This document shows, piece by piece, positions 7,728-55,230 of a DNA stretch of 64,000 bases. Under the pieces are notes generated by a model. The model did not search any database and was not told where the DNA came from. It saw only the letters and a list, made by a program, of their open reading frames with translations. A program made the position numbers and the translations under genes. The stretch lies in contig JBAZBD010000001.1 in assembly GCA_041671645.1 (NCBI GenBank), forward strand, positions 85,561 to 149,560, read 5' to 3'. This stretch comes from Patescibacteria group bacterium (GTDB lineage Bacteria > Patescibacteriota > UBA1384 > XYA2-FULL-43-10 > 1-14-0-10-43-13). Positions within the stretch are counted from its first letter, which is position 1; the number at the start of each line of letters is the position of its first letter.

Positions 7728-9686
7728 TTGGCGAGAGGGTTTAAGCGAACGCTAACATATATTTTGATGATTGCCGTACTGGCAAAGGTTTTTGGTATTG
7801 ATGTTGTGGAAGTTAAGGCAGTCACACCGCCACCACCCACTGGCACCAGTTGGGCGTATGTCAATCAAACGGGGGCTTCAAGCGGTAATGAAATCGCGAA
7901 TCTTCGTCTCAATTACAGCTCTACTCACTGGGATTTCCATAATAGATATGCAGGAAAGACCCTTAATGTTTACGATAATCCTTGGGGCCCAGCTGATAGC
8001 TGGGATCTTTGGCAGGCGGATGGCATGATGAATAACCCATCTATTCCGAATATGTATATTCTTTCCAACAATTCTGTGACTCCGAATTCTCTTGAAAATG
8101 TTTGTTGGGATCAAAAGGACCCAAACCTTGGCCAAGTAGCTGGCGCTAAGGACTTCTTTACTGGCGTGTTTGGCGACTGGAATGCAATATCAATACCAAG
8201 TGTCGGAGTGAAGCTTTGGTGCTACAAGGCTTACGAAGTCGGCTCAATCAACCAAACCCCTGGTGCCCTTTTCTCCACCCGCTCTACATTTACAAACACA
8301 CAGCCAACGGTTGCAGCATGGCAGACGGCTGCTGTCGACTACAATATTGTTTTGCAGAAAGCCAGAGAAAGCATTTCCAAGCCCATAATGCCAACTATTT
8401 TACCGGTGCAAAGGATAGGGCCCATCTCGGCAAACGATCAAGCCTGCAAATCGTGGTATACAACCAGAAGGATTGCCTCGGACGCGGATGCCCAAAAGTG
8501 GATTGACGCTCAGCTCAAGGAGATTAAAACCGTTGTACCAGATGGACAAAACGACGCAGCAGCTCAATATCTCAAGGATTATCTTTCAAACTCAGCCTCA
8601 GCCTCGGCACTGAAAAGCTTCTTGATCAACACAGATGCTGCTTCCTTCCAAAGATATTATGGCACCGCGTCAAAGCAGTATCCCACCGTTGCCCTATCGA
8701 CAAGAGAAGCTAATTCTCTCGTATCCGACTGGGATAAATTAAACGCTGGCATCCCATATGTAATTAACGGTCAGAGTGGTGCAGTCACAGCTTCGAATTG
8801 GTTTCTCGGCGTCGGAGCCGTCGCTCTTATAGCTGCAGGTGTAGTAACCGCTATGGGAGTTGGCGGTACGGTATTATTTGGCTCGGCCGGCGTCACTGCT
8901 CCCGCAGTAGCTGTTACTCAAGCGGCAAGCGGAGCAGCCGTGACTGCCTCAGGCATTGAAATATCCGGAGCATATGGTACTGCCTTGCTTCATGCAGCTA
9001 CTGCCGCCGGGACTGGGACAGTCGTGGATGGCGGTATATTATTGACTACTGGAGCAGTAATACCTGCGACTGCTACTGAAATAGCGGCTGGGAGCGTAGT
9101 CGCAACAACGGCCGCGAAGATAGCCATTGGGGCTGTAGTTACCCTTACGGCTGTATGGCTCCATGAATATATACTGAGAGCTGCCGCCCTAGCAGTCGGA
9201 GTCATAATAGGTGTTTACAATACATTCAAAACTTGGATGGACGCGGCGGCGAAAGCTGGAACATGGAACCCAATAGTTGCGTGGCTCAATAATTCTGAAT
9301 ACAAGGCTGCGAGAGAGGCTTATCTTTACAATATTTCGAAATTCTCCTTGGACATGTACTACGCCAACCAGAATAACCAATACAACAACTGCTTGAAAGG
9401 CAAGGGGGATCCCGCTGCCGTCTTTAATAGCACTGTCGATTCCCAATACCAAAAACTTTTGCCCCAGGGGTATGCGCTCGCTGGAACTTTCAATAATGCT
9501 CCAGGAGCCAGTGATTCTCCTTCGCTCTGCGCCGGATTTGATATGTGGAAGGAACCAATTTCATGGGCTTTTTGTGGTATTATCAGCATTTTCTATGATT
9601 TTGCGACTTGGCTGCAAGGACTTGGGGACAAATGGATGGCAGCCACTATTGGCGTGACCTACGACTCATGCTCAGCGGGCCCATGA
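7728..9686 (+). CDS. Secreted/surface protein with signal peptide and roughly 190-aa Gly/Ala/Val/Thr-rich hydrophobic region (T4SS locus component)
   Basis: TTG start after GGAGGGG, signal-like N-terminus, a PPPPTGTS linker and a GA-rich hydrophobic block (GVGAVALIAAGVVTAMGVGG...). The C-terminal domain is Cys-containing. Confidence 0.5.
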   Translation: MARGFKRTLTYILMIAVLAKVFGIDVVEVKAVTPPPPTGTSWAYVNQTGASSGNEIANLRLNYSSTHWDFHNRYAGKTLNVYDNPWGPADSWDLWQADGMMNNPSIPNMYILSNNSVTPNSLENVCWDQKDPNLGQVAGAKDFFTGVFGDWNAISIPSVGVKLWCYKAYEVGSINQTPGALFSTRSTFTNTQPTVAAWQTAAVDYNIVLQKARESISKPIMPTILPVQRIGPISANDQACKSWYTTRRIASDADAQKWIDAQLKEIKTVVPDGQNDAAAQYLKDYLSNSASASALKSFLINTDAASFQRYYGTASKQYPTVALSTREANSLVSDWDKLNAGIPYVINGQSGAVTASNWFLGVGAVALIAAGVVTAMGVGGTVLFGSAGVTAPAVAVTQAASGAAVTASGIEISGAYGTALLHAATAAGTGTVVDGGILLTTGAVIPATATEIAAGSVVATTAAKIAIGAVVTLTAVWLHEYILRAAALAVGVIIGVYNTFKTWMDAAAKAGTWNPIVAWLNNSEYKAAREAYLYNISKFSLDMYYANQNNQYNNCLKGKGDPAAVFNSTVDSQYQKLLPQGYALAGTFNNAPGASDSPSLCAGFDMWKEPISWAFCGIISIFYDFATWLQGLGDKWMAATIGVTYDSCSAGP

Positions 9687-9690
9687 TATT

Positions 9691-12501
9691 ATGATGAATA
9701 TTCTCGAAAAATTGAACTTATCAAAACAGAGCAGAATAATAGCCTTCTGCATTTTTGGATTTTTCCTTGTCGTTCTAGCTTTCTTGGTCCACCCTACCTT
9801 AACACTGGCCGGTACTGGGACTACCAGTAATCCAGCCACTTCATTTAATCCTCCGACAAGTTTAGCCAAAATCTATGAAGTTCTGGGCACCAACAACGGC
9901 GGTGTAGGTCACGAGATCCGATCTCTTTGGATCACCATGATGGGTATCGTGAATTCGCTGATAGTCTTAGTTCTCCTTTTTGTCGCTTTTGCGGAAATAC
10001 TACGCTTGAATGTCAGTACTTACGGAATCAAGAAGATATTGCCTACCCTAGTCCTGGCCGTACTAGCCGCCAACTTTAGCTACATTCTCTGTCGTTTCAT
10101 AGTCGATGTTGCCAACGTAATGCTGACTCTCTTTTTGAGTGATACCAATACCAAATGTATTACAGAAGGCATCAAAGTCTCAAAGTTCTTTCATGCCGAC
10201 ATCGAATCAATCATCAAAGATTTGAATGCGAACAAGGCAGGAGGTACTTCCGGTGGCCTTTTGACGGCATTGGCCTTGGTAATTTTTTCGATTGTCGCGG
10301 CGGTAATCACCTTAGTCCTGGCTTTTCTCTTTACTATCAGGAATTACATTATATATCTACTTGTGATTGTAGCTCCGATTGGCTTCATGGCCATGGCTCT
10401 GCCCCAAACCAAAACTTACTTCGGCCAATGGTGGAGCATGATGGTGAAATGGACTTTCATGCCTACTGTATCGATTGCCATCATCTGGATGGGTGGGCAA
10501 TTGCTCAAACTATCAGGCATAGGAGACTCCCCGCTCATGGGTATGGTTCTCTCTGTTGCCTTCTTGGTCCTTGCGATCCAGGTCCCCTTCAAGCTCGGCG
10601 GCCCAATCATGCAAAAATGGGGTGACATGGGCAAGAAAGCCTGGGGATCAACAGGTGGAGCTGCCGCCAATAAATGGGGTAGCGGCATCAAGGACTACTG
10701 GACTAATCAGGGGAAAAGCGTGGCCATGCGCGGCTGGAACAACTGGCGCATGACTGGATTAAATATGGTCCGCAAAGGCAACGGTTTCCAACGTGCCTTG
10801 GGAAACAGCTTCCTCTTCGGCTCGGGCGGAGACAAGGCTAAAGCCAATGTCAAATTTGAAGAAGATTTTGCAAAGGGTCTGACTGAGGGTATCCAGGCTC
10901 GTCACTACTACAAAGAAGACAGCACAGGCAAAGCAAGCAAAGCAGGCAAAAACCTCCAAATGCGCCGAGAATATCGGGCGAACCGTGCAGGCGAGGAGAA
11001 AGAGTATGAGGCCTATGCCAAAGAAGATATTATGAAGGTAGGGGCGACCGATCCAGAAGACGAGATGTACACCACCCTCAAGGCATGGCGCGCTTCTTCT
11101 GGACATGCCAGACAGAGAATGGCTATAGCCGAACAGCATATGAACGATTTAGTTGGGCAAGGTACCTTCGCCTCGATCCAGGGATATTTGATGAAAAAAG
11201 AAGACCAGAGTGAGGAAGAGATCAGAGTAGACGCGATTAAGAACAATCCCACTATTACAGACGCTGAGCTTAACAAGATTGTTGAGGAGACCGTAAAGGC
11301 AAGAAAAGAAAGAGACCAGGCAGAATACAAGAAGGTACTGGGAATGAACCAAGATCAATTCAAGGAATGGAGCGAATTCCAGATATTTGTAAATACCGAG
11401 AAAGAAAGTACTAATCGATTGAAAGAAAAAGCCGAGAAAGACCAGCTCGTCAAGCCGACAATGGATCAGCTTGCTATCCATGAACAAGCCGAGCTTTCTC
11501 AAGAAACCAAGCTTACAACACAGAAATTCAAAGAACTCTCTGACGAATTGAAAAAATTCGCCAACGGTATACAGACGAGTGGCAGAAAATTAAGTGAAAT
11601 GACCCAAGAGGAAAGAAACCACTTGCAGTCCAGCGCTTTCAGCGATGACGAAAGAAAGAAGTTTTCTGCCTATCTTAACAACCAGGGTCGCGCCACCGTC
11701 CGCCTTCGAGAGATGGGCGTATTGAATGAGAACGAGGAGTTCCGAGGCAGCGGTGACGCTCACGACTCCGCAATTGCTAAGGCCGTTGAGACGAGAGAAG
11801 CAGAGTTTATCGAGAAATTTATCAAGGGCGAGATGAAAAACGGTAAGAGAGCCGGAAAGGTAAGAATCGACGAGACTACGGGCAGGATTTCTCATATTCC
11901 AGCTCACTTGAGAAACCTGGTCGAACAAGATGCAGACGGGAACATCAAGCTAAGGCGTATGGATAGGACCACCTATACCAGAGGATTGGCTGTTGCTAAC
12001 GATAAAACCAAGGGAAGAGTTGCGGACTATTCCGCTATGACTGTCGACACCCTAATAAATCTGCTTACTGCAGGGGACAAAAAAGACAGCATCACCGCCG
12101 AAGACATCCAGGCCTTTAGAGCTGGACATGCCACCTCAGATACCAATAAGCGTAGCCGTATGATGGCCATGATAGCTTCACTTGCCGCAAAACTCGACAA
12201 GGCAAACGAAGCCAATCCAGCCGCTGAATTCATTATCAGTGGGCTTAGCCGTGATGAGACTACTGGGACCGACGAGACTCAGGAATTATTATCGGAACTT
12301 GAAAAATCTGCGGCGACTGGAGCCGCTTGGTCGACAGGCAAAGGTATGGAGGAGGCGTTAAAAGCAGCGCGGGATGCGTCTGCCGGTGACATAACGGAGT
12401 TTCGTAGAACTTTGACTACTGTTTACGCGACAATCCCCCAAAATCAAAGAGGTACCGTCAACTCTATTATTAGAAAATTTGTCAGAACTGGATCGTATTA
12501 A
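9691..12501 (+). CDS. VirB6/TrbL-like polytopic membrane protein with roughly 600-aa charged coiled-coil C-terminal extension
   Basis: Five to six TM segments across the N-terminal 330 aa with VirB6-like architecture. It is followed by a K/E-rich helical tail and sits in an operon with VirB3/VirB4 homologues. Confidence 0.55.
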   Translation: MMNILEKLNLSKQSRIIAFCIFGFFLVVLAFLVHPTLTLAGTGTTSNPATSFNPPTSLAKIYEVLGTNNGGVGHEIRSLWITMMGIVNSLIVLVLLFVAFAEILRLNVSTYGIKKILPTLVLAVLAANFSYILCRFIVDVANVMLTLFLSDTNTKCITEGIKVSKFFHADIESIIKDLNANKAGGTSGGLLTALALVIFSIVAAVITLVLAFLFTIRNYIIYLLVIVAPIGFMAMALPQTKTYFGQWWSMMVKWTFMPTVSIAIIWMGGQLLKLSGIGDSPLMGMVLSVAFLVLAIQVPFKLGGPIMQKWGDMGKKAWGSTGGAAANKWGSGIKDYWTNQGKSVAMRGWNNWRMTGLNMVRKGNGFQRALGNSFLFGSGGDKAKANVKFEEDFAKGLTEGIQARHYYKEDSTGKASKAGKNLQMRREYRANRAGEEKEYEAYAKEDIMKVGATDPEDEMYTTLKAWRASSGHARQRMAIAEQHMNDLVGQGTFASIQGYLMKKEDQSEEEIRVDAIKNNPTITDAELNKIVEETVKARKERDQAEYKKVLGMNQDQFKEWSEFQIFVNTEKESTNRLKEKAEKDQLVKPTMDQLAIHEQAELSQETKLTTQKFKELSDELKKFANGIQTSGRKLSEMTQEERNHLQSSAFSDDERKKFSAYLNNQGRATVRLREMGVLNENEEFRGSGDAHDSAIAKAVETREAEFIEKFIKGEMKNGKRAGKVRIDETTGRISHIPAHLRNLVEQDADGNIKLRRMDRTTYTRGLAVANDKTKGRVADYSAMTVDTLINLLTAGDKKDSITAEDIQAFRAGHATSDTNKRSRMMAMIASLAAKLDKANEANPAAEFIISGLSRDETTGTDETQELLSELEKSAATGAAWSTGKGMEEALKAARDASAGDITEFRRTLTTVYATIPQNQRGTVNSIIRKFVRTGSY

Positions 12502-12509
12502 ATTTATTT

Positions 12510-13298
12510 ATGGACAAAGATTACACTAATTTGATTAGGCTACTAATTCAGGCAGATGACAGATCACTTGGTGACGAGTCAGTCACTTCTATTTTGTCGC
12601 GAGCTCAATCCGTCGACGCTTCTGTCAAGAGGACAGTGGCTGAAAATTATGATGATATCAAAATATTTGTCGCTTCAAGGAAAGCCGACATTTATCCTCG
12701 TCATCTCCTGTTGGAAAGGCTTCAGCTGAAATTACTCGACGCCGTGCTTCTCGATGTCAATGCGTCTCAAGTTTCATCCTGGAAACCCGAACAGATTATC
12801 GAAAAGATAAATCATGACATTGTTGAGGGCAAGGGAGACTTTAAGTTAAATAAAATAGACAATATCCTGGACATTATTCACAAGATCCAGACCGTGGAGA
12901 AAGTAAACCGCTCCATCGACCTGATCTATTATTATGATCTTGCCCAGAAGGCATATTTTCACATGCCATATTTTCGGAACCTAGAACAAAATGTTATTGA
13001 GAATATAATTCGCGATTTGGAAAACAATTTCCCTAGAGTTAGATACACCTTGTCCGATGAGACAGCCTCCAAGAAAATAGCCACTGCCTGCTTGCTGTCC
13101 AAGGGATTCACTCAAAGCCAGCTATCTCCGCTGACTGCACCATCACTTTTCGAGATCATGAAGGACATTTTCTTTTGCTGTGTGGCGACCCTAATATTGA
13201 GAAGCACAAACAAAAGTAATTCATATACCTCCGCTGAGGCAGTCGACACCCTCGACCTTCTCATGGTTGATGATCAAATCATGAGCAATTGGGATTAG
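12510..13298 (+). CDS. Hypothetical cytoplasmic protein of T4SS locus
   Basis: ORF in the operon with no recognised motifs. Confidence 0.4.
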   Translation: MDKDYTNLIRLLIQADDRSLGDESVTSILSRAQSVDASVKRTVAENYDDIKIFVASRKADIYPRHLLLERLQLKLLDAVLLDVNASQVSSWKPEQIIEKINHDIVEGKGDFKLNKIDNILDIIHKIQTVEKVNRSIDLIYYYDLAQKAYFHMPYFRNLEQNVIENIIRDLENNFPRVRYTLSDETASKKIATACLLSKGFTQSQLSPLTAPSLFEIMKDIFFCCVATLILRSTNKSNSYTSAEAVDTLDLLMVDDQIMSNWD

Positions 13299-13399
13299 TA
13301 CTTCGCCGAGCTGACCTTATAAATTTTGGCACGGCTGATCTGTTGCTGTACTTTGGTATCAATGTTATAATTTCCCTAGAGATTAATTTGGAGGGGATA

Positions 13400-13819
13400 T
13401 TGAGATTTAAGGTTCCGCAAAATATCGACATGCAGGATCGCATTTTGGGGCCACTGACCATGGTTCAATTTATCTATGCCGTGGTCGGATTTGGCATTTG
13501 CTACGCTATATTCTCGGCCATACCTGCGCCGCTCTCCTATCTGCTGGTCATACCAATCGGCCTTTTTGTCGTATGTCTCGATTTCGTCAAGGTCAACGAG
13601 AGGCCTTTCCTAAACTTTTTCATGTCAGCGATCCAATTCGCCGGTTCGCCCAAACAAAGGTTTTGGAGCCAGGGCAGCGATTCAGATATGGAAGTGGAGA
13701 TTTATCAAGCCCAAGTCCAACAAACAACCCATCCACACAAAGATATTAGCCACGCCGAGATCGAAGCCCTGGCTGGGAAAATAGACACTATTTCAGGCAA
13801 ACAGATGATTGAAAGATAG
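13400..13819 (+). CDS. VirB3/PrgI-like small two-TM membrane protein
   Basis: Two hydrophobic helices (FIYAVVGFGICYAIF and LLVIPIGLFVVCL), size, and position immediately upstream of VirB4. The likely start is TTG 13400 after GGAGGGG (or ATG 13430). Confidence 0.5.
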   Translation: MRFKVPQNIDMQDRILGPLTMVQFIYAVVGFGICYAIFSAIPAPLSYLLVIPIGLFVVCLDFVKVNERPFLNFFMSAIQFAGSPKQRFWSQGSDSDMEVEIYQAQVQQTTHPHKDISHAEIEALAGKIDTISGKQMIER

Positions 13820-13824
13820 TTTTT

Positions 13825-14811
13825 ATGGCATTTTCAACTCAACAACAAATTGAGATTGCGGGTATCAAGGACGGTATTATCATCATGAAAGATGGAACGT
13901 ACCGTGTCATTTTGGAGGTGACTGCTACCAACTTTGCGCTCAAAAGCGAGATGGAGCAAAACTCTCTAATCATGCAATATCAGAGCTTCCTAAATTCCCT
14001 ACATTTTACGATCGAGATCACCATACGCTCGAAAAGATTGGATTTAGCTCCTTATCTGACCAAGATGAAGGCACTGGGCGACAAACAGCCGAGTGAACTG
14101 ATCCGAGAGCTATCCGCTGATTACGTCGACTTTATCGGCAAGCTCGTCACCATCGCCAACATTATGAAGAAAAGCTTCTTTGTCACCATCGCTTACTCTC
14201 CTATTTCGGTCAAACAGGTCGGGCTTTTCAACATGCTATTCGGGCAAAAAACACAAAAATTTGATCATTTGAAAATCTCCGATGTTGATTTCAAGAACGC
14301 AACTGAGAAATTGCTTGAAAACGCCGGTATAGTCGCTTCTGGCCTAGGCTCGATGGGGCTCCACTGCTTTCAGCTTTCAACCGAACAGATCATTGAGCTC
14401 TTTTATCAAATTTACAATCCAGCTGAATCAACCAAGGAGCGATTGACCGACGCTGAGATGCTAGCTTCTCAGGTCGTCTCCACCAAGAAAGCTCCGGCGG
14501 ATGGCAAGGTGCCGGAGATCGATGGTATCACGCCGATGCTGATTGACAACACTCATATTGTGACGGCCCAGATGCAGCAGGAGGCGGAGCAGAGACGACA
14601 GGCCACTGAGATGGAAAATATGAATGCTCCTGCTGGAACGCAAGTACCACAGACCGCAGCCACAGAACAGGCTGGGGCCAGCAAAGCACCAGAGCTCAAT
14701 GAACTAGACGTTGCCACGGTAAACACCTCGGCATCAACCCCAACTACCAATTCTCCATTAGATAATTTGAGTAAAGACGATGACGGACCAGAACCCAAAC
14801 CCACAACCTAA
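13825..14811 (+). CDS. VirB4/TraE-family ATPase, N-terminal portion (first fragment of a split gene)
   Basis: IKDGIIIMKDGTYRVILEVTATNFALKSEMEQNSLIMQYQSFLNSLHFTIEI matches the N-terminal domain of Gram-positive VirB4 (PrgJ/TcpF type). It ends in a Q/A/T/P-rich low-complexity tail. Confidence 0.55.
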   Translation: MAFSTQQQIEIAGIKDGIIIMKDGTYRVILEVTATNFALKSEMEQNSLIMQYQSFLNSLHFTIEITIRSKRLDLAPYLTKMKALGDKQPSELIRELSADYVDFIGKLVTIANIMKKSFFVTIAYSPISVKQVGLFNMLFGQKTQKFDHLKISDVDFKNATEKLLENAGIVASGLGSMGLHCFQLSTEQIIELFYQIYNPAESTKERLTDAEMLASQVVSTKKAPADGKVPEIDGITPMLIDNTHIVTAQMQQEAEQRRQATEMENMNAPAGTQVPQTAATEQAGASKAPELNELDVATVNTSASTPTTNSPLDNLSKDDDGPEPKPTT

Positions 14812-16714
14812 TCCTGTCCAGCCGGACGCTCAAGCCCCAGCCCCAGTTCCACAGGCTCCTCCGGCCGATGCTAGAGCGATTGCAAACCAGAACCTGAAGT
14901 CCAGAGAGAAAAGCTCGATGACTCCAGACGAATTTTGGAACAAAAAGGCAGAAGCGTCCAAAATCAAGAGTGGGGCGACCTCAGTTCGAGATATTGTCGC
15001 ACCTGCCTCTTTCGCTGTTTCGTCCAATTTTATCCAAATCGACAATTATTTCGTCAAAACTCTCTTTGTCTTCACCTACCCCCGGTATATCGAGACGAAT
15101 TGGCTCTCGCCAATTATCAACTACGATATTTCGATGGATATCGCCATGTATATCCACCCGATGGAGACCAGAGACGTCATGACCGAGCTCAAGACTCAAG
15201 TTGGTAAGCTCGAGTCCACCCTTTCAATCGAGCGGGAAAAGGGCCAGCCCAGAGACCCAGAAGTCGAGACCGCGCTCGGTGACGTTGAGGCGCTTCGAGA
15301 TGTTCTCCAGCGTGGCGAGGTCAGATTATTTCAATTTGGGCTTTACTTCACTATCTACGCCGGCTCAGCCGAAGAACTTCGCACCGTCATGGATCAGCTC
15401 GAATCAACCTTGGGCGGACTCCTGATTTATACCAAAGAGACACTTTTCCAAATGGAGCAGGGCTTCACTGCCACTTTGCCTCTGATGCAGGACAAGATCA
15501 ACGTCCTTCGCAATTTGGACACCGCCTCTCTCTCCTCTACTTTCCCCTTCGTCTCGAGCGAATTGACCCAAGACGATGGAATTCTGTACGGAATCAATCG
15601 CCACAACAATTCCCTAATTATTTTCGATCGATTTTCTCTTGAAAACGCCAACTCTCTAGTCCTGGCCAAATCCGGCTCGGGTAAATCGTACTTGGTCAAA
15701 TTGGAGGCCTTGCGCTACTTGATGCTTGGCACCGACGTAATCGTGATCGACCCAGAAAACGAGTACAAAACTCTTTGCGATTCCGTCGGCGGTAGTTACT
15801 TGGATATTTCGTTAAACTCCGACAAACGAATTAATCCGTTCGACCTCCCAATCAACCCCTACGAAACAGGCGAAGACGTCCTCCGCTCTAATATCGCTTC
15901 CCTCCATGGCCTGATCAATATCATGGTCGGTGGCCTCACCCCAGAAGAAGACTCCACCGTAGACAAGGCTCTTTATGAGACTTACGCCATCAAGGATATT
16001 ACGACCGATCCAGAAAGCCAGACCAATCAGCCTCCTCTGCTTCAGGACTTCTTCAATATCCTCTCCAACATGCAGGGCACTGAATCGCTTCGGGCCAGAC
16101 TGGTCAAATACACCGAGGGCACCTACGCCAATCTTTACAACCAGCCGACCAATTTTGAGCTCAAAGAAGGTTTCGTTTGCTTCTCTGTCCGCGACTTGGA
16201 AGATCAGCTCCGCCCAATCGCTATCTATACTGTCCTTGATTATATCTGGACCAAAGTCAGAATGAACCGAAAACAGCGCATCATGATCGTGGATGAAGCC
16301 TGGTGGATGATGCAATATGAGGATTCTGCCAAGTTCCTTCACGGCCTGGCCAAGAGAGCAAGAAAATATAACCTTGGGCTTACAATCATCAGTCAGGACG
16401 TCGAGGATTTCTTGGGTAGCCGTTATGGCAAAGCCGTCTTGGCCAACTCCTCAATGCAAGTCCTGATGAAACAATCGACCGCTTCGATCAATTTGATCGC
16501 TGATGTTTTCAATTTGACTGAGGGCGAGAAATATTTGCTTCTCGAGTCTGATGTCGGAGAAGGTCTCTTCTTCGCGGGCTTGAATCACGTAGCTTTCAAA
16601 GCGATTGCTTCCTACACCGAAAATGAAATTATTACTGTCGAGCCAGAAGAGCTGGCAAAACAGGGGCCAGAAGATGCTGTAGCGGCAGCAGACCCTAACA
16701 CACCAACCCAATGA
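14780..16714 (+). CDS. virB4: VirB4/TraE-family T4SS ATPase, middle and C-terminal ATPase portion
   Basis: Walker A AKSGSGKSYLV and Walker B IMIVDEAWWMM. FVKTLFVFTYPRYIETNWLSPIINYDISMDI matches the VirB4 middle region. It starts with a P/Q-rich low-complexity stretch in a different frame from the upstream fragment. Confidence 0.85.
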   Translation: MTDQNPNPQPNPVQPDAQAPAPVPQAPPADARAIANQNLKSREKSSMTPDEFWNKKAEASKIKSGATSVRDIVAPASFAVSSNFIQIDNYFVKTLFVFTYPRYIETNWLSPIINYDISMDIAMYIHPMETRDVMTELKTQVGKLESTLSIEREKGQPRDPEVETALGDVEALRDVLQRGEVRLFQFGLYFTIYAGSAEELRTVMDQLESTLGGLLIYTKETLFQMEQGFTATLPLMQDKINVLRNLDTASLSSTFPFVSSELTQDDGILYGINRHNNSLIIFDRFSLENANSLVLAKSGSGKSYLVKLEALRYLMLGTDVIVIDPENEYKTLCDSVGGSYLDISLNSDKRINPFDLPINPYETGEDVLRSNIASLHGLINIMVGGLTPEEDSTVDKALYETYAIKDITTDPESQTNQPPLLQDFFNILSNMQGTESLRARLVKYTEGTYANLYNQPTNFELKEGFVCFSVRDLEDQLRPIAIYTVLDYIWTKVRMNRKQRIMIVDEAWWMMQYEDSAKFLHGLAKRARKYNLGLTIISQDVEDFLGSRYGKAVLANSSMQVLMKQSTASINLIADVFNLTEGEKYLLLESDVGEGLFFAGLNHVAFKAIASYTENEIITVEPEELAKQGPEDAVAAADPNTPTQ

Positions 16715-16715
16715 A

Positions 16716-18161
16716 ATGCCTGACCTCGATGTCTCAAAAGTTGCAGGCGGGTTCAAGATCCAAAAATATCTGATTCCGATCGGCGGATTTTTTGTCGTCA
16801 TGCTTTTCTCTGTGATCGGTTTTTCTTTTTTTGGGATAATGAGGGACAATCGAATTCCCGAAGTGACACCCATGACCTCAATTTCTGGCGCATCTGTCAC
16901 CTGTCAGGACTGGGGCGCAGGCACAAAGGGTGCCGTCAATTTCCAGGAAGATATTACATATGCTGCCAACAATTCCAAGATCCAGCCAGCTCTGCTAGGC
17001 GCGATTTTTTCGGCTGAGCATGGAGGCTGGCCAGTTTCAAATTGGGCTACTGACGACTATACGACACCAAACCAAACAAGCGGTGCGATGGGCCCGTTTC
17101 AATTCATGCCTGGTACATGGGCTGAACAGTGCAAAAAATACAATAACGATCAGGTTAAAAAATTAGGCTTAGCCCCAATCGCAGATTGCGGTCCGGATAC
17201 CGCCAAGGATTTCAAATCTGCGTCCAAAGTCTCAGCCTATTATCTGAAATATCTGGCCGGCCGGATTACGAAGAATAGTAAAACTGCTGAAAAAGCTGAT
17301 ATTCAAGGTATAGCCGTTTCTTATAACGGTGGCCCAGGAACTTACGATGATTGGAAAGACTCTGGATTTGCGACCCTAAATAGCGAATCCAGCGGATACA
17401 AAACGAAGGTTTGGGATCGCTTTCAGGTTCTATACAAAGGGTGCTCCTCCAATGACGCTACCAATCTACCGACAACTATCTCCTCCTTTGACACTTCATT
17501 TATGAACGCAGAGCCGCTGAAGAGTTGGCTGAAGAATCGACCCAAGATTAACACACAGAGTCAGACCGCCACAGGCATTACTCTCCACTGGACGGGAAGC
17601 TGGGACAAGAATGTGACAGCAGAGCAGGCAGTCAGTAAGTTGATAACCGGTTGGTACAATCGTGATACGGAGACAGACGGCACGAAGTCTTCGGTATTTA
17701 ACCATCTGGTGATTGATCCGGCTGGCAAGGTTTGGCAGCTTATCCCGCTAGATGTAAGACAAGCTGGTTCGGGCAAGGGAACAGTAAATAATATTAGCGC
17801 CAATGACTTCACTATCGGCATTGAGATAGCAGGCACGGGGCCGGCAGATGTGGGGCCCGACACTGCCGCCTACAACGCAGCCCTTACTACTGTCGAAAAA
17901 CTGTTATCCGAGATTCCAACCATCAAGAACGACAGAGGCAATGACCTTAATTTCAAGGCTAAGTCTGGAATATTCGGTCACTTCCAAACCGCAACTGCGA
18001 CAAGCACGAGCACAGTTGGCTGTTCAAGCGCCAAGGATGACCCTGGGCTGGCCTTCATGAAGGAACTTTGGGATGACCTCAAGATTTGGCAGGGGCTCCG
18101 GACAAATGGCAACGGTTGTTATTTCGAAAATGGAAAAAAGAAATATTACCCACCAAGATAA
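16716..18161 (+). CDS. Bifunctional peptidoglycan hydrolase: SLT lytic transglycosylase plus N-acetylmuramoyl-L-alanine amidase (amidase_2/PGRP) domains; VirB1 functional analogue
   Basis: SLT motif AIFSAEHGGW...GAMGPFQFMPGTW. The C-terminal amidase_2-like region is NHLVIDPAGKVWQLIP...FTIGIEIAG. An N-terminal TM anchor is present. Confidence 0.7.
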   Translation: MPDLDVSKVAGGFKIQKYLIPIGGFFVVMLFSVIGFSFFGIMRDNRIPEVTPMTSISGASVTCQDWGAGTKGAVNFQEDITYAANNSKIQPALLGAIFSAEHGGWPVSNWATDDYTTPNQTSGAMGPFQFMPGTWAEQCKKYNNDQVKKLGLAPIADCGPDTAKDFKSASKVSAYYLKYLAGRITKNSKTAEKADIQGIAVSYNGGPGTYDDWKDSGFATLNSESSGYKTKVWDRFQVLYKGCSSNDATNLPTTISSFDTSFMNAEPLKSWLKNRPKINTQSQTATGITLHWTGSWDKNVTAEQAVSKLITGWYNRDTETDGTKSSVFNHLVIDPAGKVWQLIPLDVRQAGSGKGTVNNISANDFTIGIEIAGTGPADVGPDTAAYNAALTTVEKLLSEIPTIKNDRGNDLNFKAKSGIFGHFQTATATSTSTVGCSSAKDDPGLAFMKELWDDLKIWQGLRTNGNGCYFENGKKKYYPPR

Positions 18162-18201
18162 GTTCATATTTCGATGATTTTAGGGTAAAATTATAGTAGA
18201 G

Positions 18202-18611: not shown

Positions 18612-18655
18612 TAATTGATTAAAAAATAGAAATTAATAAATAAGAATTAATTTGA
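18605..18655. repeat. AT-rich repeat family member flanking four-helix-bundle gene (right, inverted and degenerate)
   Basis: Its reverse complement aligns to the left flank (aattctta...ttattaattt...caatt.ttaattt). Confidence 0.5.
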
Positions 18656-36754: not shown

Positions 36755-36781
36755 AGACGAAAGTAGTAAGTTTTTAGTTTC

Positions 36782-36829
36782 TAGTTCTTAATTTTTATTC
36801 AATTATTAATTAATAATTATAAATTGATT
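36782..36829. repeat. AT-rich inverted repeat, right copy
   Basis: tagttcttaatttttattcaattattaattaataa. See the partner at 35821-35868. Confidence 0.8.
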
Positions 36830-36862
36830 AGAAATTAGAAACTAATAAATAGAAATTATTTT

Positions 36863-41332: not shown

Positions 41333-41653
41333 TTAACTTATCAGATTAACGACTGCAATTATCATAACATAAGATAATGCAATGATGATCAAGCCAATAA
41401 CAGCGTTCAGTATACCCTGCATGCCTTTCTTGGCTGACTCTGCATTTCCGCCAGCGGTCAAGTAAAGAAAGCCGCCGATGATCAGAAAGACGAATGCGAT
41501 AATAGCACCTATTCCTGCTGACCAATTAAGAATATTCACTGCTATCGATTGGAACCCAGTATCACCCGCAACCGGTTGAACGAATTTTAGAACAGGAAAA
41601 GTGTTCGCTGGTGCTGTTGGATCCGCTGCTAAAACTTTCTCGATTAGATTCAT
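41333..41653 (-). CDS. Pilin-like two-TM hairpin protein, paralogue 1 (VirB2/TrbC-like candidate)
   Basis: Roughly 45-aa hydrophilic N-terminus, then TM1 (GIGAIIAFVFLIIGGFLYLTAGG), loop NAESAKKGMQG and TM2. It shares the motif F/Y-x-T-A-x-G-(N/D)...AKK...G-L with four neighbouring genes. Confidence 0.5.
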   Translation of the reverse strand: MNLIEKVLAADPTAPANTFPVLKFVQPVAGDTGFQSIAVNILNWSAGIGAIIAFVFLIIGGFLYLTAGGNAESAKKGMQGILNAVIGLIIIALSYVMIIAVVNLIS

Positions 41654-41717
41654 AAATCCTCCGTTAATTATTTTGTTTATTATATTTTAAAACTTTTGGG
41701 ACAACCTAGTCAATAGC

Positions 41718-42047
41718 CTATTTGCTCAGCAACCACAGAAGGGTAGTAAGAGTTATCCATGAAAGCGAAATCACAACCAGGCCAACTACAGAGTTGATGA
41801 TGCCCTTCACTGCCTTCTTGGCTGATTCTGCGTTTCCGGCGGCGGTCATGTATTGAAAGCCAGAGACAATGAATACCACGAATGCGATAAAAGCTGCTAC
41901 TTCGCAGGTTATAGTGAAGACCGTGTTTATTTGGGTCGTAATGATGCTCAAATAGCTACCCCCCACTTCCGCGTCAGACCTGACAGGGTTGTCCAGCTTT
42001 AGCGGGTTAAGATCGATAGCCAATACCTTTTCGATAATCGTATTCAT
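41718..42047 (-). CDS. Pilin-like two-TM hairpin protein, paralogue 2
   Basis: The QYMTAAGNAESAKKAVKGIINSVVGLVVISL motif is shared with the neighbours. Confidence 0.5.
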   Translation of the reverse strand: MNTIIEKVLAIDLNPLKLDNPVRSDAEVGGSYLSIITTQINTVFTITCEVAAFIAFVVFIVSGFQYMTAAGNAESAKKAVKGIINSVVGLVVISLSWITLTTLLWLLSK

Positions 42048-42049
42048 AG

Positions 42050-42388
42050 CTAAAACACTTTCTGCGCCAAGATTCGGATCAGACTAGCCAAGCCAACTAT
42101 CGCCAACCCTCCTATCGACCAGAGCAGGGTTTTCTTGGCCGTTTCGGCCTTGGCATCTTCTCCAAAGGACGTGACATATAGGAAACAGCCCCAAAGGAAC
42201 ATGGCGAACGCGACGATACCAGCAAAGGATATTGCCATCACTACGAACGAATTGGCTGCGCTATTGATAGTGTTGAGGTCTTTGTTTGTGTCAATCCCAT
42301 TGAAATCACAAAGGAAATCACTGAGGGTGGAAACACCATCTCCCTTTATTTCTGCACATTTTGTAGCGTCTATGATGGGGCTGGCCAT
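42050..42388 (-). CDS. Pilin-like two-TM hairpin protein, paralogue 3
   Basis: FLYVTSFGEDAKAETAKKTLLWSIGGLAIVGL. It is translationally coupled, starting 2 nt after the upstream stop. Confidence 0.5.
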   Translation of the reverse strand: MASPIIDATKCAEIKGDGVSTLSDFLCDFNGIDTNKDLNTINSAANSFVVMAISFAGIVAFAMFLWGCFLYVTSFGEDAKAETAKKTLLWSIGGLAIVGLASLIRILAQKVF

Positions 42389-44229
42389 TATTTAAATCTC
42401 TTTATTATATTTACTACAAACAATATTATCGTATACGACAGGGTTCCTGCAACAAGGCCAACAATTAGGTAGATCGCAGATTTCTTGGCTTGCTCTACCT
42501 TCTTGTCGTCCCCAGCGGCGGTCAAGAAGAGGAAGCCGGTAAAGAGGATACCGATCAGGGCGCCGGCGCCAATCAGTATCATCAGTATTCCTGGGTGGGT
42601 AGCGTCTTTGCCAAAGAGGCTGTTGTAAAGGTCGCCGATTTTGTGAATAGTGCCACCGACGAGTTTGCTGGAGTTGAGCACGATTTTCTTGCTGGTCCCG
42701 CCAGTAGTACCTCCAGTAGTACCTCCAGTTTCCTGCTTAACTGGCTGCTTGATCAAAGATTTTCCTGGTAGGCAATCATCTGGGCTTAAGTATACCCAAC
42801 CGACAGAGCGATCTGCGCTCCATGTTTCGCCGATTGTGGAACTGTTTGCTGTAACGGTTACTACCCCGTAGTGGGCTCCGTTGTTGGGATCAGCCTCGGC
42901 CTGGCTTATTCCTGTCTTTCGCTTGAGGAGTTTGACAGTAGCTTCGTGGTAATAAGGCTCAGAAGTGTTGGAAAAAGTGTGAGTGAACTCGGGATTGAAG
43001 GTGTAGGAGTTGTAATTATCAAGTGTTTGGAAATCGCAGATCCAGTTTTGGCCTTCCCCTGAGCATGCCGCTCCTGAGTCGTCGAGATGGCTCCTCAAAG
43101 TGGGATTGTCTCCAGGAGTGATGGAGTAGCCCTTGTAGCTGATGTACATCTTGACAATATATTCTGAAGGATCCTTCGGTTTTTCTGGTAGAGTGACGTT
43201 GACGTTGACGGTAAGATCCCTGTTGGTGGCACGAATCATACAGGCGTTGTAGACTTCTCTTCCGTTGAACCTGACGTCCAGTCTCGGCTGGCTTATGTTC
43301 GGAGCGTACTCTTCCCCCGCGTTTGTGAGAGTGTAATAGGCTGGCGGAGAGTCCCATCTAGTACCATTGCCATCTAGGAAATAACCCTTAATGGCGTATG
43401 CCCCCGTTGCCAATCCGCTGAGATCTGACCAGCTAGCGGTGCATGATCCCCTGATGGTGTCGCTGGTTGTGTCATCAACATTACGATTGGTATAGAGCCA
43501 GGAAAATTCTGAGTCATCGGCGTTGCCATCTGTTCCTGGCTCGTCTGATCTCATAATTACGCAATCTGTCAGAACGGGAACGATTGAAGTCGATGTGAGG
43601 GACAAGGGCATGTCGATATTTACTGATGATGTTGTTGCTATGTCGATTGTCTGGTTCGACGGTAGATAGGCAGAACCGAGCGCATCTTGCGAAATCGGAT
43701 CTTCTGGTGGAAAATCTGGGGTGTCGGCGACACAATAGTAGGTGTCATCGGGATAATTATCGCAATAATTAGCGTCATAGGGGTTTATTACTGTTACCCA
43801 GTTCGAATCTCGTGATACTGGTACAGGATTACCCTCCTGGTATAACTCGGCTGTAAACTGGTATTGGTTGTCGGGGGTAAATTCGTCTGTGGTCCATGAT
43901 CCAGAGCAATATTGGTTGCTGTCTGTGACATCCACGTATATCGACCACTCATCGGTGACGTCTAGACCAAACTGTGTCCCGTTTTCAACATAGATGTAGC
44001 ACTCGTAATTTGGATCAGATAGCTCACCATCGGGTAAATTAAAATCCGTCCAAAAATCCACAGTTTCTCCAGCGTATATCTCCTGCGGGTCGCCGTAGAC
44101 TAATATCGTCGGTTGATCCTCTGCTCTCGCTGGAGTCACGAAATAAGCTGATCCTAGGAATAGGAGACAGGTGATGAAAACAATTCTAATAATTTTTCGA
44201 GAAATTTTCATCAAGATTTGGCTGGACAA
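42388..44229 (-). CDS. Secreted 613-aa protein with large N-terminal extracellular domain fused to a C-terminal pilin-like two-TM domain
   Basis: Signal peptide (ITCLLFLGSAYFVTPARAED), a roughly 500-aa Cys/Asp/Asn-rich ectodomain and a GGTTGGTTGGTS linker. The C-terminus GILMILIGAGALIGILFTGFLFLTAAGDDKKVEQAKKSAIYLIVGLVAGTLSY matches the neighbouring small proteins. Confidence 0.6.
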   Translation of the reverse strand: MSSQILMKISRKIIRIVFITCLLFLGSAYFVTPARAEDQPTILVYGDPQEIYAGETVDFWTDFNLPDGELSDPNYECYIYVENGTQFGLDVTDEWSIYVDVTDSNQYCSGSWTTDEFTPDNQYQFTAELYQEGNPVPVSRDSNWVTVINPYDANYCDNYPDDTYYCVADTPDFPPEDPISQDALGSAYLPSNQTIDIATTSSVNIDMPLSLTSTSIVPVLTDCVIMRSDEPGTDGNADDSEFSWLYTNRNVDDTTSDTIRGSCTASWSDLSGLATGAYAIKGYFLDGNGTRWDSPPAYYTLTNAGEEYAPNISQPRLDVRFNGREVYNACMIRATNRDLTVNVNVTLPEKPKDPSEYIVKMYISYKGYSITPGDNPTLRSHLDDSGAACSGEGQNWICDFQTLDNYNSYTFNPEFTHTFSNTSEPYYHEATVKLLKRKTGISQAEADPNNGAHYGVVTVTANSSTIGETWSADRSVGWVYLSPDDCLPGKSLIKQPVKQETGGTTGGTTGGTSKKIVLNSSKLVGGTIHKIGDLYNSLFGKDATHPGILMILIGAGALIGILFTGFLFLTAAGDDKKVEQAKKSAIYLIVGLVAGTLSYTIILFVVNIIKRFK

Positions 44230-44240
44230 GCTATTATTTT

Positions 44241-44570
44241 TTACGAAATATTGAATGTGGGCATGCCTAGGAAATCGAGGATCATGCCAAGGGTCAAAAG
44301 CAGGACGTATCCAAGGAGCGTGCCCATGAAGACGTCTTTGGCGGTGTTGATCTTGGTATTATCTCCCTGGGAGGTCATATATACGAAGCCGGCGTAGATA
44401 ATCATGAGGACCGTGAGAGTGCCACCGAGCTTGAGGGCAAATTGATAAATAGCATGGACGTATTCGCCATAGTCAAAATTATCCTTCCCATCTATCTTGA
44501 GACCGACTTGCACTCCGGCTTGGGCAGCATTCACCAAATGAAAACCAATTTTTTCTATCACATTTACCAT
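44241..44570 (-). CDS. Pilin-like two-TM hairpin protein, paralogue 4
   Basis: VYMTSQGDNTKINTAKDVFMGTLLGYVLLLTLG. It overlaps the upstream lipoprotein gene end by a few nt. Confidence 0.5.
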   Translation of the reverse strand: MVNVIEKIGFHLVNAAQAGVQVGLKIDGKDNFDYGEYVHAIYQFALKLGGTLTVLMIIYAGFVYMTSQGDNTKINTAKDVFMGTLLGYVLLLTLGMILDFLGMPTFNIS

Positions 44571-45934
44571 GTTTCTTTCCTGAGTAAGACAGTGATATTG
44601 TCAGCGGCTTGGTTGAGAGCGGCCTGGGCTGTTAGTGTTCCCTTGTTCACCGCCCTGATGGCGTTGCGCATATTGGCGTCGAAATCCCCAGGGTAGCGAC
44701 CCTTTTGAAATGCTTTGGCTGTCGCGAGCTCTAATTTCTCAGGATTATTCCCAGTTCTGTTCTCTATGCCTATTTCGTATGAATCGTACTTGTAGGAGCC
44801 ATAAAGTCTTGAGGCGGATGTAATATTACTAGAATATGTCGTAGCTAGGCCATGTACTACATTCCAAGCTATGGCTGAGTTGGGGGTGATAGCGCTGACA
44901 CCAAATGCGTTGAATCTAGCATAGTCAATAATCTTATCTGGTTCAGTGTTAACCTGTGGCACATAGGTAGTAGCATAATCTTTAAAGGTAGGATATTTCT
45001 GGGCGAACACATTGAGTAGTCGATCATAACCGAAGAGGATGGCAACTTTGCCGTTAACGAAGGCTTCGACATCATTGCCCATCGATTCATTCCAGGTATA
45101 GTTGGCACCCTTGGGATTGGCAAATGAAGTGTAGAATTCGAGTGCCCTCTTGCCAGGGACTTCTTCGGTGCCGACTGGAGTACTGCTCGGTAGGCTGAAC
45201 ATGGCCAATTTGAGATCGTCAGAGAGGATCTTGGTCTCGTTTTGGAGCATGAGAAGATAGAGAATATCCTGTGGATAGGAAACATTGTCAGAGCCAATGG
45301 CCGCTCCCGCTATGCTAATATTGTCGCCATCTCGCTTGGTCAAGTATGGCATTGCTTCGGCAAAATTTGTCCAGGTATTGGGGACGGGGTCGAACATCTT
45401 CGAGATTCTCTCATATGTGACACCACTGACAGTGCTTTTCTCAAGATCAGACAGTGCTTGTCGGATCAGGCTGGGATTGTAGTACACAATCATCGGCTCT
45501 GCTGAAGCAGATAGGGCGTAAATATTATTATCAATCTGGACACTTTGTTTGATCGATTGAACATAGCCCTCATCCATATTGACCTTGCTGGTGATAGCGG
45601 TAGGAGCAGGGACCAGTTTATCCTTGTGGCGGTAGACCCAATCATTCGGCATAGACCAGACATCGGGGCCGGTACCGGAAAGCTGAGAGTTTAGGACCTT
45701 GTTCTCATAGGCGGCGTCGAGGGTCTGTTGGACGTACTCCATAGTGTAGCCCTTGTTGGTCGACTCGAAGTCCTTGACGATTGGTTTCCAGACGTCGGGA
45801 TCCTCAAAGCTCCAGACTATGACCTTGGTGGCTCGTGCGTCTGTGGTGCTGGTTTTCTTGGTACAGCCCGACAGCGCCACAGTAAAAAAGGCCATCATCA
45901 CTGCATAGCTGGCGAATTTAAGAAATCGTTTCAT
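44564..45934 (-). CDS. Lipoprotein, extracellular solute-binding protein family 1 (sugar-type ABC substrate-binding fold)
   Basis: Lipobox ALSGC after an N-terminal signal (start MKRFLKF at 45934). VWSFEDPDVWKPIVKDFE and PDVWSMPNDWV are typical of SBP_bac_1. No permease or ATPase genes are adjacent. Confidence 0.6.
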   Translation of the reverse strand: MKRFLKFASYAVMMAFFTVALSGCTKKTSTTDARATKVIVWSFEDPDVWKPIVKDFESTNKGYTMEYVQQTLDAAYENKVLNSQLSGTGPDVWSMPNDWVYRHKDKLVPAPTAITSKVNMDEGYVQSIKQSVQIDNNIYALSASAEPMIVYYNPSLIRQALSDLEKSTVSGVTYERISKMFDPVPNTWTNFAEAMPYLTKRDGDNISIAGAAIGSDNVSYPQDILYLLMLQNETKILSDDLKLAMFSLPSSTPVGTEEVPGKRALEFYTSFANPKGANYTWNESMGNDVEAFVNGKVAILFGYDRLLNVFAQKYPTFKDYATTYVPQVNTEPDKIIDYARFNAFGVSAITPNSAIAWNVVHGLATTYSSNITSASRLYGSYKYDSYEIGIENRTGNNPEKLELATAKAFQKGRYPGDFDANMRNAIRAVNKGTLTAQAALNQAADNITVLLRKETW

Positions 45935-46082
45935 ATATACCCTCCACTTCGTCGGAGACGAAGCAATTATCAATTATCAAATATCAATAATCAAATATTA
46001 ATTGTTCACTTGTAAACCTGAAAAATTAAATGCCCTGAAAGGGTCCCTTTGGGAATCATTGACCATTGATACTTGATATTTT

Positions 46083-47080: not shown

Positions 47081-47464
47081 CTATTTGCTCTCTTTTCCAT
47101 CATTAATCTTGATGAATTTGGTCTTGGCTTTTTCGTCCTTGGAGATTTCAATGCGAAGAAGGCCGTCTTTCAAAGTAGCCTTGGCACTCTCAGAATTGAT
47201 GGCGATTGGCATGACGTAGGAGCGTGAAAAAGGCCCCCAATAGCACTCTTGGGTGAAATGTTTGTCGCTTGGCAAATCATGTCCGGCCTGGCGGGTACCC
47301 TTGATGGTGATAACTTCGTCAGTGATGGAGATATCCACATCAGAAGCTTTCACCCCGGCGATTGGGGCCAAGATGTAAACATTGTGGTCATCATGAAAAA
47401 CATCGACAGCAAGCTGGCCTTCTGTTTCTTCGGCTAACCAATCATTGTTATGATTTTCGACCAC
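47081..47464 (-). CDS. Hsp20/alpha-crystallin family small heat-shock protein
   Basis: Alpha-crystallin domain (AVDVFHDDHNVYILAPIAGVKASDVDISITDEVITIKG ... LKDGLLRIEISK). Confidence 0.8.
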   Translation of the reverse strand: MVENHNNDWLAEETEGQLAVDVFHDDHNVYILAPIAGVKASDVDISITDEVITIKGTRQAGHDLPSDKHFTQECYWGPFSRSYVMPIAINSESAKATLKDGLLRIEISKDEKAKTKFIKINDGKESK

Positions 47465-47540
47465 GACCCTCCTTTAGGTTCTGGACTAGTTCAAATCAAG
47501 CGATATACTAGATATAAATATTATATACTTATAGAGACCC

Positions 47541-48284: not shown

Positions 48285-48355
48285 CGACCAAGCAATTAAT
48301 TTTTCGTAATTCAGCTTGAATATTTGCCCAAAAAATGTTATTGTTTGAGCTGCCT

Positions 48356-48443
48356 GGAGAGGTCGCATAGTGGTCGAGTGCAACTGTCTTGAAAACAGTC
48401 AGGCCGCAAGGTCTCGTGGGTTCGAATCCCACCCTCTCCGCCA
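48356..48443 (+). tRNA. tRNA-Ser (anticodon UGA)
   Basis: GGAGAGG acceptor stem, anticodon loop CTTGAAA, long variable arm, TTCGAAT T-loop and encoded CCA. Confidence 0.85.
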
Positions 48444-55147: not shown

Positions 55148-55149
55148 AA

Positions 55150-55230
55150 AAAATTTCTAATTAATAATTATTAATTTCTAATCAAATTCTAATTCTCAAT
55201 TATTAAAAATTAGAAAATGAAAATTAATAA
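55150..55230. repeat. Related AT-rich repeat (ctaattaataattattaatttctaat...) between efp and rpsR
   Basis: It shares the ATTAGAAATTAATAAT-type core with the 36806-36856 extension. Confidence 0.45.

Follow-up and report, generated by a model that had tools for sequence, protein, structure and literature searches.

A candidate hybrid pilin links a variable ectodomain to a VirB2-type module in a Patescibacteria pilin array

Introduction

What is a secreted protein with a large ectodomain doing among the small pilins of a Patescibacteria gene array? The question is raised by a gene at 42388..44229 (minus strand) of a 64,000-nucleotide stretch of DNA, called the window here, from a Patescibacteria group bacterium (NCBI GenBank assembly GCA_041671645.1, contig JBAZBD010000001.1, positions 85,561 to 149,560 of the forward strand). 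The original prediction for this gene was a signal peptide, a large ectodomain, a flexible linker and the same two-helix pilin module as in the small genes next to it, and we found this domain order to be correct. We believe that the gene might encode a hybrid pilin, in which a variable domain for surface recognition or adhesion is tethered to a conserved VirB2-type module that is either anchored in the membrane or built into a pilus. We give this reading a probability of roughly 0.55.

Pilin arrays and type IV secretion systems (T4SSs) of Patescibacteria are already known. The T4SS is related to monoderm conjugation systems, lies near dnaA and usually has no relaxase (PMC12102498). The arrays contain 2-11 divergent VirB2-like genes with a mean identity of 25% (PMC12102498; Quinonero-Coronel et al. 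2025), and a survey of Patescibacteria T4SS loci detected no adhesin (PMC12102498). In Southlakia epibionticum, the array genes SEML1_0014 to SEML1_0019 all belong to Pfam family PF18895 and all six are essential (Wang et al. 2023, PMC10633639). It is the only array for which a requirement for epibiotic growth is known. The second of them, SEML1_0015, has 185 amino acids (aa) with the pilin at residues 115-180 and is thus N-extended, and the array adjoins Hsp20, ComFC and tRNA-Ser (PMC10633639).

Results

Architecture of the large gene

Counted from a TTG codon, the large gene has the 613 codons of the original prediction, with no internal stop codon. An ATG at residue 7 (coordinate 44211) gives a product of 607 aa, and the same start was chosen when genes were called independently on a Logan contig whose sequence is identical to that of the window. 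The ATG is more likely to be the start than the TTG, and the size of 613 aa applies from the TTG only. Residue numbers below count from the TTG, and all features of the gene and its array lie on the minus strand. From the ATG, the N-terminus reads MKISRKIIR-IVFITCLLFLGSAYFV-TPARA, followed by EDQ, and shows the n/h/c layout of a Sec-type signal peptide, as had been claimed. The signal peptide MKISRKIIRIVFITCLLFLGSAYFVTPARA (44122..44211) is read from the sequence, and its cleavage is predicted between ARA and EDQ by the -3/-1 rule. A lipoprotein was considered and rejected, as the N-terminus reads without a lipobox.

A linker of low complexity occupies residues 497-520 (42670..42741). It contains GGTTGGTTGGT at residues 502-512 (42694-42726), for which the DNA has 2.4 tandem copies of a 12-nt unit (42701-42729). 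The flexible linker of the original prediction is thereby located between the ectodomain and the pilin module.

The pilin module

The C-terminal module spans residues 521-613 (42391..42669) and consists of an amphipathic helix alpha1, a hydrophobic alpha2, the basic loop AAGDDKKVEQAKK and a hydrophobic alpha3, with the two hydrophobic segments at ~543-575 and ~584-611. The C-terminal 101 aa alone score 31.7 bits against Pfam PF18895 (T4SS_pilin), and the large protein scores 62 bits against a profile of 52 family members. AlphaFold2, run with a 52-sequence alignment, predicted helices at residues 521-538, 547-570 and 575-612, with a predicted local distance difference test score (pLDDT) above 90 for the hairpin. 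All four small neighbours also match PF18895. Alignment of the large protein's C-terminus with these neighbours shows 20-28% identity, the residues F, T, G, G and L being conserved, which agrees with the kinship that had been predicted. A hidden Markov model (HMM) search of the 64-kb window with the hairpin matched the five open reading frames (ORFs) of the array and no others.

A relation to classical VirB2 proteins was indicated by two comparisons. Of the 52 PF18895 family members, 16 also match PF04956 TrbC/VirB2 (best E 1.9e-7), and hhalign of the family against five genuine plasmid VirB2/TrbC proteins gave a probability of 71% (E 3.7e-5, 39 columns). On this sequence evidence, the C-terminal module is a type IV secretion pilin of the VirB2/TrbC type and not a type IV pilus pilin. 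The term "pilin-like" of the original prediction thus holds for the two-helix module and needs to be narrowed to the T4SS type, given the PF18895 match and the lack of a class III prepilin motif in the protein. NCBIfam matches were confined to the hairpin or its immediate vicinity; they comprised a pilin-like family and a spurious match to NADH-quinone oxidoreductase subunit J (E 0.062). A search of PDB sequences with the pilin-family profile returned only designed "Pizza" repeat proteins, which we regard as spurious. The 120 best PF18895 family matches span 82-156 aa, so that the large protein, with 607 or 613 aa, contains a PF18895 domain and yet is an atypical family member by size.

The ectodomain

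Residues 37-500 constitute an ectodomain of ~460 aa with a pI of 4.05 and 10 Cys. The enrichment in Asp, Asn, Tyr and Cys that had been noticed is real when the ectodomain is compared with 27 other large ORFs of the window: Cys is raised 3.0-fold, Trp 2.05-fold, Tyr 2.0-fold, Asp 1.7-fold, Pro 1.6-fold, Thr 1.56-fold and Asn 1.4-fold, whereas Lys is down at 0.33-fold. In absolute terms, the commonest residues are nonetheless Thr and Ser.

A lineage-specific Cys-pair beta module, with the pattern Y-x-C-x-I-Y-V ... C-x3-W ... G/x-Y, is found in two copies. An HMM of this module built from relatives alone, with the window sequences excluded, matches the window protein twice, at residues ~43-148 (independent E-value 5e-9) and ~198-286 (9e-7). 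We assign module 1 to residues 40-149 (43783..44112) and module 2 to residues 191-303 (43321..43659); the spacer between them, residues 150-190 (43660..43782), is rich in Asp, Pro, Tyr and Cys and holds C156 and C166. Module 1 shows 28% pairwise identity to the first domain of orthologues on two related contigs (L084 and L085, described below). The third region, residues 304-496 (42742..43320), contains 4 Cys and is predicted to be all-beta, and it has no significant match to the Cys-pair module or to any known family. Self-BLAST showed no internal repeat in the ectodomain, and a BLAST search of every ORF of the window showed no paralogue; the two-module structure is visible only through the profile built from orthologues, and self-BLAST is blind to it. 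On another related contig (L088, 4350-4952), the first pilin of the array has a C-terminal extension of ~95 aa that carries the Cys-pair module of the large ectodomain (weak PKD match, E 0.025). The module can therefore sit at either end of a pilin.

Searches with the ectodomain were otherwise largely empty. A word-indexed homology search with the full protein gave nothing at E<=0.01 among its candidates, which are capped at 8,000; the cap may have been reached, and this may also be why the query itself was not recovered. Exhaustive HMMER of the ectodomain against 1.84 billion representative proteins gave three matches, all repeat-driven in unrelated repeat proteins and taken as spurious. The whole ectodomain and its first two thirds had no Pfam match even at E<=10, the last third had a sole weak match to Ntox30 (E 0.16), and a PDB sequence search had none. 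Similarity to the VirB5 family was found neither by Pfam (E<=10) nor by the PDB sequence search. We rejected a common secreted hydrolase or other enzyme, the reading that the original prediction had set against its own: Pfam, NCBIfam, PDB and HMMER searches detected no catalytic domain in residues 37-500, and the ectodomain matches no enzyme or other known domain.

AlphaFold2 without an alignment gave an all-beta ectodomain at pLDDT 43. Domain and structure prediction together yielded an all-beta region with two Cys-pair modules and no known domain. Two observations are hints at most of an immunoglobulin (Ig)-like fold, namely weak matches of the module profile to Ig-fold proteins of the PDB (E 0.026 and 0.43) and sub-threshold Ig_3 and PKD matches in orthologues. 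Foldseek with the ectodomain model returned generic tandem Ig-like proteins at a TM-score of ~0.15, and this result was not used as evidence.

The pilin array operon

The large gene is the third ORF of a minus-strand operon and the second of its five pilin genes. The operon begins with an SBP_bac_1-like (SBP-like) lipoprotein gene (44564..45973) with an LSGC lipobox, whose likely start gives 456 aa. It is followed by small VirB2-like pilin 1 (44241..44570, 109 aa), the large gene, and the small VirB2-like pilins 2 (42050..42388, 112 aa), 3 (41718..42047, 109 aa) and 4 (41333..41653, 106 aa). The five tandem PF18895 genes span 41333-44570 and are divergent, at 20-28% identity. The start of pilin 1 overlaps the stop of the SBP-like gene (ATGGTAA), and the stop of the large gene shares 1 nt with the start of pilin 2; the array operon is translationally coupled. 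Weak evidence points to promoter-like sites ahead of the SBP-like gene and in the 64-nt gap that precedes pilin 4. The small pilins are exact matches to proteins WC227_00585 to WC227_00605 of a metagenome-assembled genome at NCBI, and the nearest named relatives of the SBP-like protein are from Candidatus Berkelbacteria; the genome is probably Berkelbacteria-like. A PilB/GspE (T2SSE) ATPase gene at 39556-41235 is convergent to the end of the array, an arrangement that is conserved in relatives.

The small pilins of the window have no Sec signal peptide. Three of the four (41333-41653, 41718-42047 and 44241-44570) begin with M(N)x(I)IEK[VI] and have a tail of ~45 residues before the first hydrophobic helix, which suggests insertion independent of a signal peptide or an unrecognised leader. 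The last two small pilin genes share a 131-nt stretch of 72% identity (41381-41511 and 41769-41899), which indicates a relatively recent tandem duplication in the array.

Orthologues in the same slot

Orthologues were recovered by synteny, from metagenome contigs whose SBP-like proteins are 53-60% identical to that of the window. Four contigs (L084, L085, L086 and L088) share the gene order ComF, Hsp20, in some cases a bAvd gene, GalU, SBP, pilin, large gene, pilins and convergent PilB. The gene in the slot encodes 556, 561, 548 and 615 aa, respectively. In all four products, a signal peptide and an ectodomain are followed by a Gly-, Thr-, Ser- and Pro-rich linker and by a PF18895 hairpin at the C-terminus. 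In a fifth contig (L087), the slot is occupied by an N-extended pilin of 175 aa.

The identity to the window differs strongly along this locus. It is 72% for GalU, 58% for PilB, 53-60% for the SBP-like protein and 24-52% for the small pilins. Within the large gene, it is 30-40% for the hairpin and ~21% for the ectodomain. By this comparison, the ectodomain evolves faster, by a wide margin, than any other part of this conserved locus. Such a rate is expected of a region in contact with a host cell or under selection at the surface. A diversity-generating retroelement was examined as the source of the variability and rejected, as no template/variable repeat pair was found and no reverse transcriptase was present among the ORFs scanned. 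Two of the related contigs have one or two extra genes of ~480-500 aa between the array and PilB (L086 6531-7958, L088 7925-10886), which have no Pfam match and are absent in the window.

Related hairpin fusions

A metagenome scan seeded with the hairpin motif gave 80 loci, a sample that is biased by the seed pattern. The 80 genes with the hairpin most like that of the window comprise 42 small genes, 33 fusions with the pilin first, 2 with the ectodomain first and 3 truncated genes. In the 33 pilin-first fusions, the C-terminal ectodomain has 254-3,485 aa, and recognisable domains include Big_5, TIG, Big_7, DUF4215 and VWA, while one hybrid carries PG_binding; Big_5, TIG, Big_7, VWA and PG_binding are adhesin-type domains. 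The hairpin of the window protein is nearer to those of the pilin-first proteins (44-50% over ~56 residues) than to those of its own small neighbours. The pilin-first loci (L001, L003, L007, L015, L017, L027-L029, L052, L058, L076, L080 and others) are on Patescibacteria-like contigs. Their proteins have a signal peptide, an N-terminal VirB2-like pilin, a Gly-rich linker and a giant ectodomain of up to ~3,500 aa, and the genes are often paired, with one product of ~600 aa and one of ~3,000 aa.

The order of the window also occurs in a more distant lineage, where L053 has SBP, a small pilin, an ectodomain-first pilin of 551 aa and four small pilins; in L056, likewise more distant, a hybrid of 648 aa comes first in the array. 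A homologue of the SBP-like gene lies directly upstream of arrays of 3-12 pilin genes in 13 of the 80 loci (L010, L012, L018, L021, L036, L049, L050, L053, L056, L063, L066, L072 and L081), usually behind an ORF of the size of GalU, and the SBP-like gene is also first in the array in the five close relatives L084-L088. The SBP-like lipoprotein, with no ABC permease beside it, is thus a conserved first gene of VirB2-like arrays. Metagenomes commonly encode the pilin hairpin in fusion with a large ectodomain. None of the literature searched, PMC10633639 and PMC12102498 included, was found to describe large ectodomains joined to a VirB2-like module, the SBP-like partner gene or the slot conserved for an N-extended pilin; proteins of this kind may be recorded in domain-architecture databases.

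Genomic context

The window is chromosomal and includes the origin region with dnaA (34274-35662), dnaN, recF, rnpA and yidC. A T4SS core cluster of the monoderm type (7728..18161, plus strand) is the presumed assembly machine. It contains genes for a PrgI/VirB3-like protein (13289-13819, plus strand), a VirB4-like ATPase (14780-16714, plus strand) and an SLT+amidase cell-wall hydrolase (16716-18161, plus strand), together with large membrane proteins that have no Pfam match. No relaxase or coupling-protein family turned up among the window ORFs scanned. With these genes, the window conforms to what has been published for Patescibacteria (PMC12102498). Hsp20, ComF and tRNA-Ser are located at 47081-48443. 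Relative to these three, the array runs in inverted orientation, and between it and Hsp20 lie the genes for the SBP-like protein and GalU.

Several further features of the window were noted. A bAvd-like / 23S-rRNA-IVP four-helix-bundle gene (18249-18611, plus strand) lies inside the T4SS cluster, and in three relatives (L083, L087 and L088) a homologue of it is found between Hsp20 and GalU, beside the pilin operon. Directly downstream of the T4SS cluster are genes for an acidic low-complexity protein of 617 aa (19934-21787, plus strand) and a protein of 3,163 aa (21791-31282, plus strand) with an N-terminal transmembrane segment. The sizes of the two resemble those of the pilin-first pairs in other loci; neither has a Pfam match, nor a pilin module by the hairpin profile. 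AT-rich intergenic repeats of ~55 nt with 61-84% identity occur at 18195-18250, 36762-36817 and 55145-55200 and at 18594-18647, 35826-35879 and 36803-36856. Several genes, yidC and the bAvd-like gene among them, have such a repeat upstream, and it may act as a common promoter or regulatory element. Runs of an 8-nt unit (GACTTTCG / AACTTTCA) are present at four or five sites (776-822, 1668-1714, 34036-34082 and 56161-56207), one of them in the interval between dnaN and dnaA, a plausible place for an element related to the origin.

Discussion

We propose that the large gene encodes a hybrid pilin. The Sec signal peptide would export the acidic, Cys-containing, all-beta ectodomain of ~460 residues, and the two C-terminal hydrophobic helices would enter the membrane as a hairpin whose lysine-rich loop faces the cytoplasm. 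Like VirB2/TraA pilins, the protein would then be N-out/C-out, and a flexible GGTT tether would hold the ectodomain outside the cell. The pilin module would serve as a conserved carrier that docks a variable domain onto the T4SS pilin system. The bulk of the ectodomain rules out a role as the major subunit. More speculatively, the small paralogues might form a filament in which the hybrid is a rare or first (tip) subunit, in a role like that of VirB5; alternatively, the hybrid might stay anchored in the membrane beside that filament. Either way, the ectodomain might recognise or adhere to the host bacterium, a task that VirB5 or separate adhesins perform in other T4SSs.

Several observations weigh against this proposal. 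The PF18895 score of the full-length protein (27.9 bits, gathering cutoff 26.6) is barely above the cutoff. Foldseek with the hairpin model against the PDB gave no significant match, with the conjugation pilus of Aeropyrum at rank 2 (E 7). The pLDDT of the ectodomain allows no fold or binding site to be assigned. The topology of the small pilins, which have no Sec signal peptides, is deduced from the positive-inside rule and from homology. The array is ~23 kb from the T4SS core genes and is not adjacent to them.

The main rival explanation regards the VirB2-like hairpin as a two-helix membrane anchor only. The protein would then be one of many anchored surface proteins and would remain in the cytoplasmic membrane throughout, and the position of the gene in the array would reflect a shared ancestry of anchors and involve no co-assembly. 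It is favoured by the giant fusions, as 33 of the 80 most similar genes carry ectodomains of 254-3,485 aa, which are too large for repeating subunits. The distance of the array from VirB4 fits it too, and no Patescibacteria VirB2-like protein is known to form a filament. However, a single transmembrane helix would suffice for anchoring, whereas the full three-helix module with its loop motif is kept at 30-50% identity while the ectodomain falls to ~21%. The large gene is also coupled to bona fide small pilins and holds a fixed array slot across lineages, and the genes of the Southlakia array are essential together. We consider a mere anchor possible, and clearly less probable than a hybrid pilin.

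It is rather improbable that the protein is a released exoprotein, in which a protease would cut the GGTT linker and the soluble ectodomain would act on the host or join the SBP-like lipoprotein in nutrient capture. Proteolytic processing is known for canonical VirB2/TrbC precursors. The low-complexity linker is exactly at the junction and is rich in Gly, Thr, Ser and Pro in the orthologues as well, and the SBP-like lipoprotein gene is the conserved first gene of the operon. Nevertheless, the operon has no protease gene, HMMER, PDB and Pfam searches found no enzyme or toxin domain in the ectodomain, and a secreted protein needs no pilin module conserved over 90 residues.

A chance fusion, an assembly error or a pseudogene is effectively refuted by the orthologues. 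The absence of a detectable ectodomain homologue among the 1.84 billion proteins might have suggested such an artefact, as might the fact that neither the 607- nor the 613-aa product is present as an exact sequence in the protein collection. Against this stand the independent assembly with an identical sequence, the four related contigs whose corresponding slot holds an intact gene with this architecture, the lack of an internal stop and the two matches of the relatives-only module profile. A pilin or minor pilin of a type IV pilus working with the adjacent PilB/GspE ATPase, which the conserved convergent arrangement of that gene might suggest, is refuted by the features tested: the class III prepilin motif (G-F/M-T/S-L-x-E, cut after G) is absent from the large protein and has one incidental match in the window, in an unrelated short ORF; the hydrophobic hairpin is C-terminal in place of a single N-terminal helix; and the Pfam family is T4SS_pilin, with no family of type IV pilus pilins matched.

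The hybrid pilin that we propose shares features with several known systems. With VirB2/TraA/TrbC pilins, it shares the three helices, the hydrophobic alpha2-alpha3 hairpin and the basic loop. Before they assemble, these pilins are inserted into the membrane. In the F pilus, the lumen is lined by the alpha2-alpha3 loop, and both termini are outside the filament (PMC5018250). With this geometry, terminal fusions would be displayed on the outside, and both fusion orders fit the VirB2 topology. The canonical proteins differ in having 70-120 aa and no extra domain, and they belong to diderm hosts with VirB5, VirB7, VirB9 and VirB10, which are absent here.

The Southlakia array is close to that of the window in its tandem divergent PF18895 genes near dnaA, the monoderm-type T4SS with no relaxase detected, the Hsp20/ComF/tRNA-Ser neighbourhood and the N-extended second pilin. 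In contrast to Southlakia and other Patescibacteria arrays, the N-extension in the window is a multi-module ectodomain of 460 residues with its own Sec signal peptide, and the array is led by the SBP-like lipoprotein gene and lies ~23 kb from the T4SS core. It appears that having an N-extended pilin near the start of the array is an old trait that has been conserved, and the window represents an extreme case of it. The pilin-first giants (for example 3,161 aa in L058 and 579 aa in L001) have the hairpin subtype, the Gly-rich linker and an ectodomain predicted outside the cell in common with the window protein. They differ in their reversed order and recognisable domains, while the window protein is ectodomain-first and its modules are unannotated.

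FimH and PapG of chaperone-usher pili and the minor pilins CofB and TcpB of type IV pili join a binding domain to a pilin domain. The likeness is that one copy of a two-domain adhesin is carried by a filament of small subunits. The folds and machines are, however, unrelated to those of the window: FimH has an Ig-fold pilin domain and donor-strand exchange, and type IV pilus pilins have an N-terminal helix. In its proposed role, the large protein is also comparable to the tip adhesin VirB5/TraC, which initiates and caps the T4SS pili of Gram-negative bacteria, and to the variable VirB2 and VirB5 copies of Bartonella Trw (PMC12857230), where a diversified host-contact protein occurs alongside variant pilins. 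Unlike VirB5/TraC, which is a separate protein, the contact domain would here be fused to a VirB2-type module, and it has no similarity to VirB5 in sequence or domains.

In a broader and tentative hypothesis, which we regard as less likely than the hybrid pilin itself, Patescibacteria would join their host-recognition proteins covalently to VirB2-type modules. The essential monoderm T4SS would load ectodomain-first forms and the much commoner pilin-first forms (up to ~3,500 aa) onto or next to the pilus, and the exchangeable ectodomain would set the usable host. If true, this would be a display principle that has been described for no T4SS, and it would take over the function of the VirB5 or PrgB adhesins that are missing.

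Apart from type IV pili, no envelope machine other than the T4SS with its pilin array is known to be essential to the epibiotic life of cultivated Patescibacteria. The large gene is a concrete candidate for the host-contact part of the Patescibacteria T4SS, and the idea is testable with the genetics of Saccharibacteria, in which the second array gene is N-extended too. The role of the VirB2 family would be widened, with the module acting as a carrier of other domains beyond a bare filament subunit. The related fusions also suggest that uncultivated bacteria encode many giant, pilin-anchored surface proteins that have gone undescribed.

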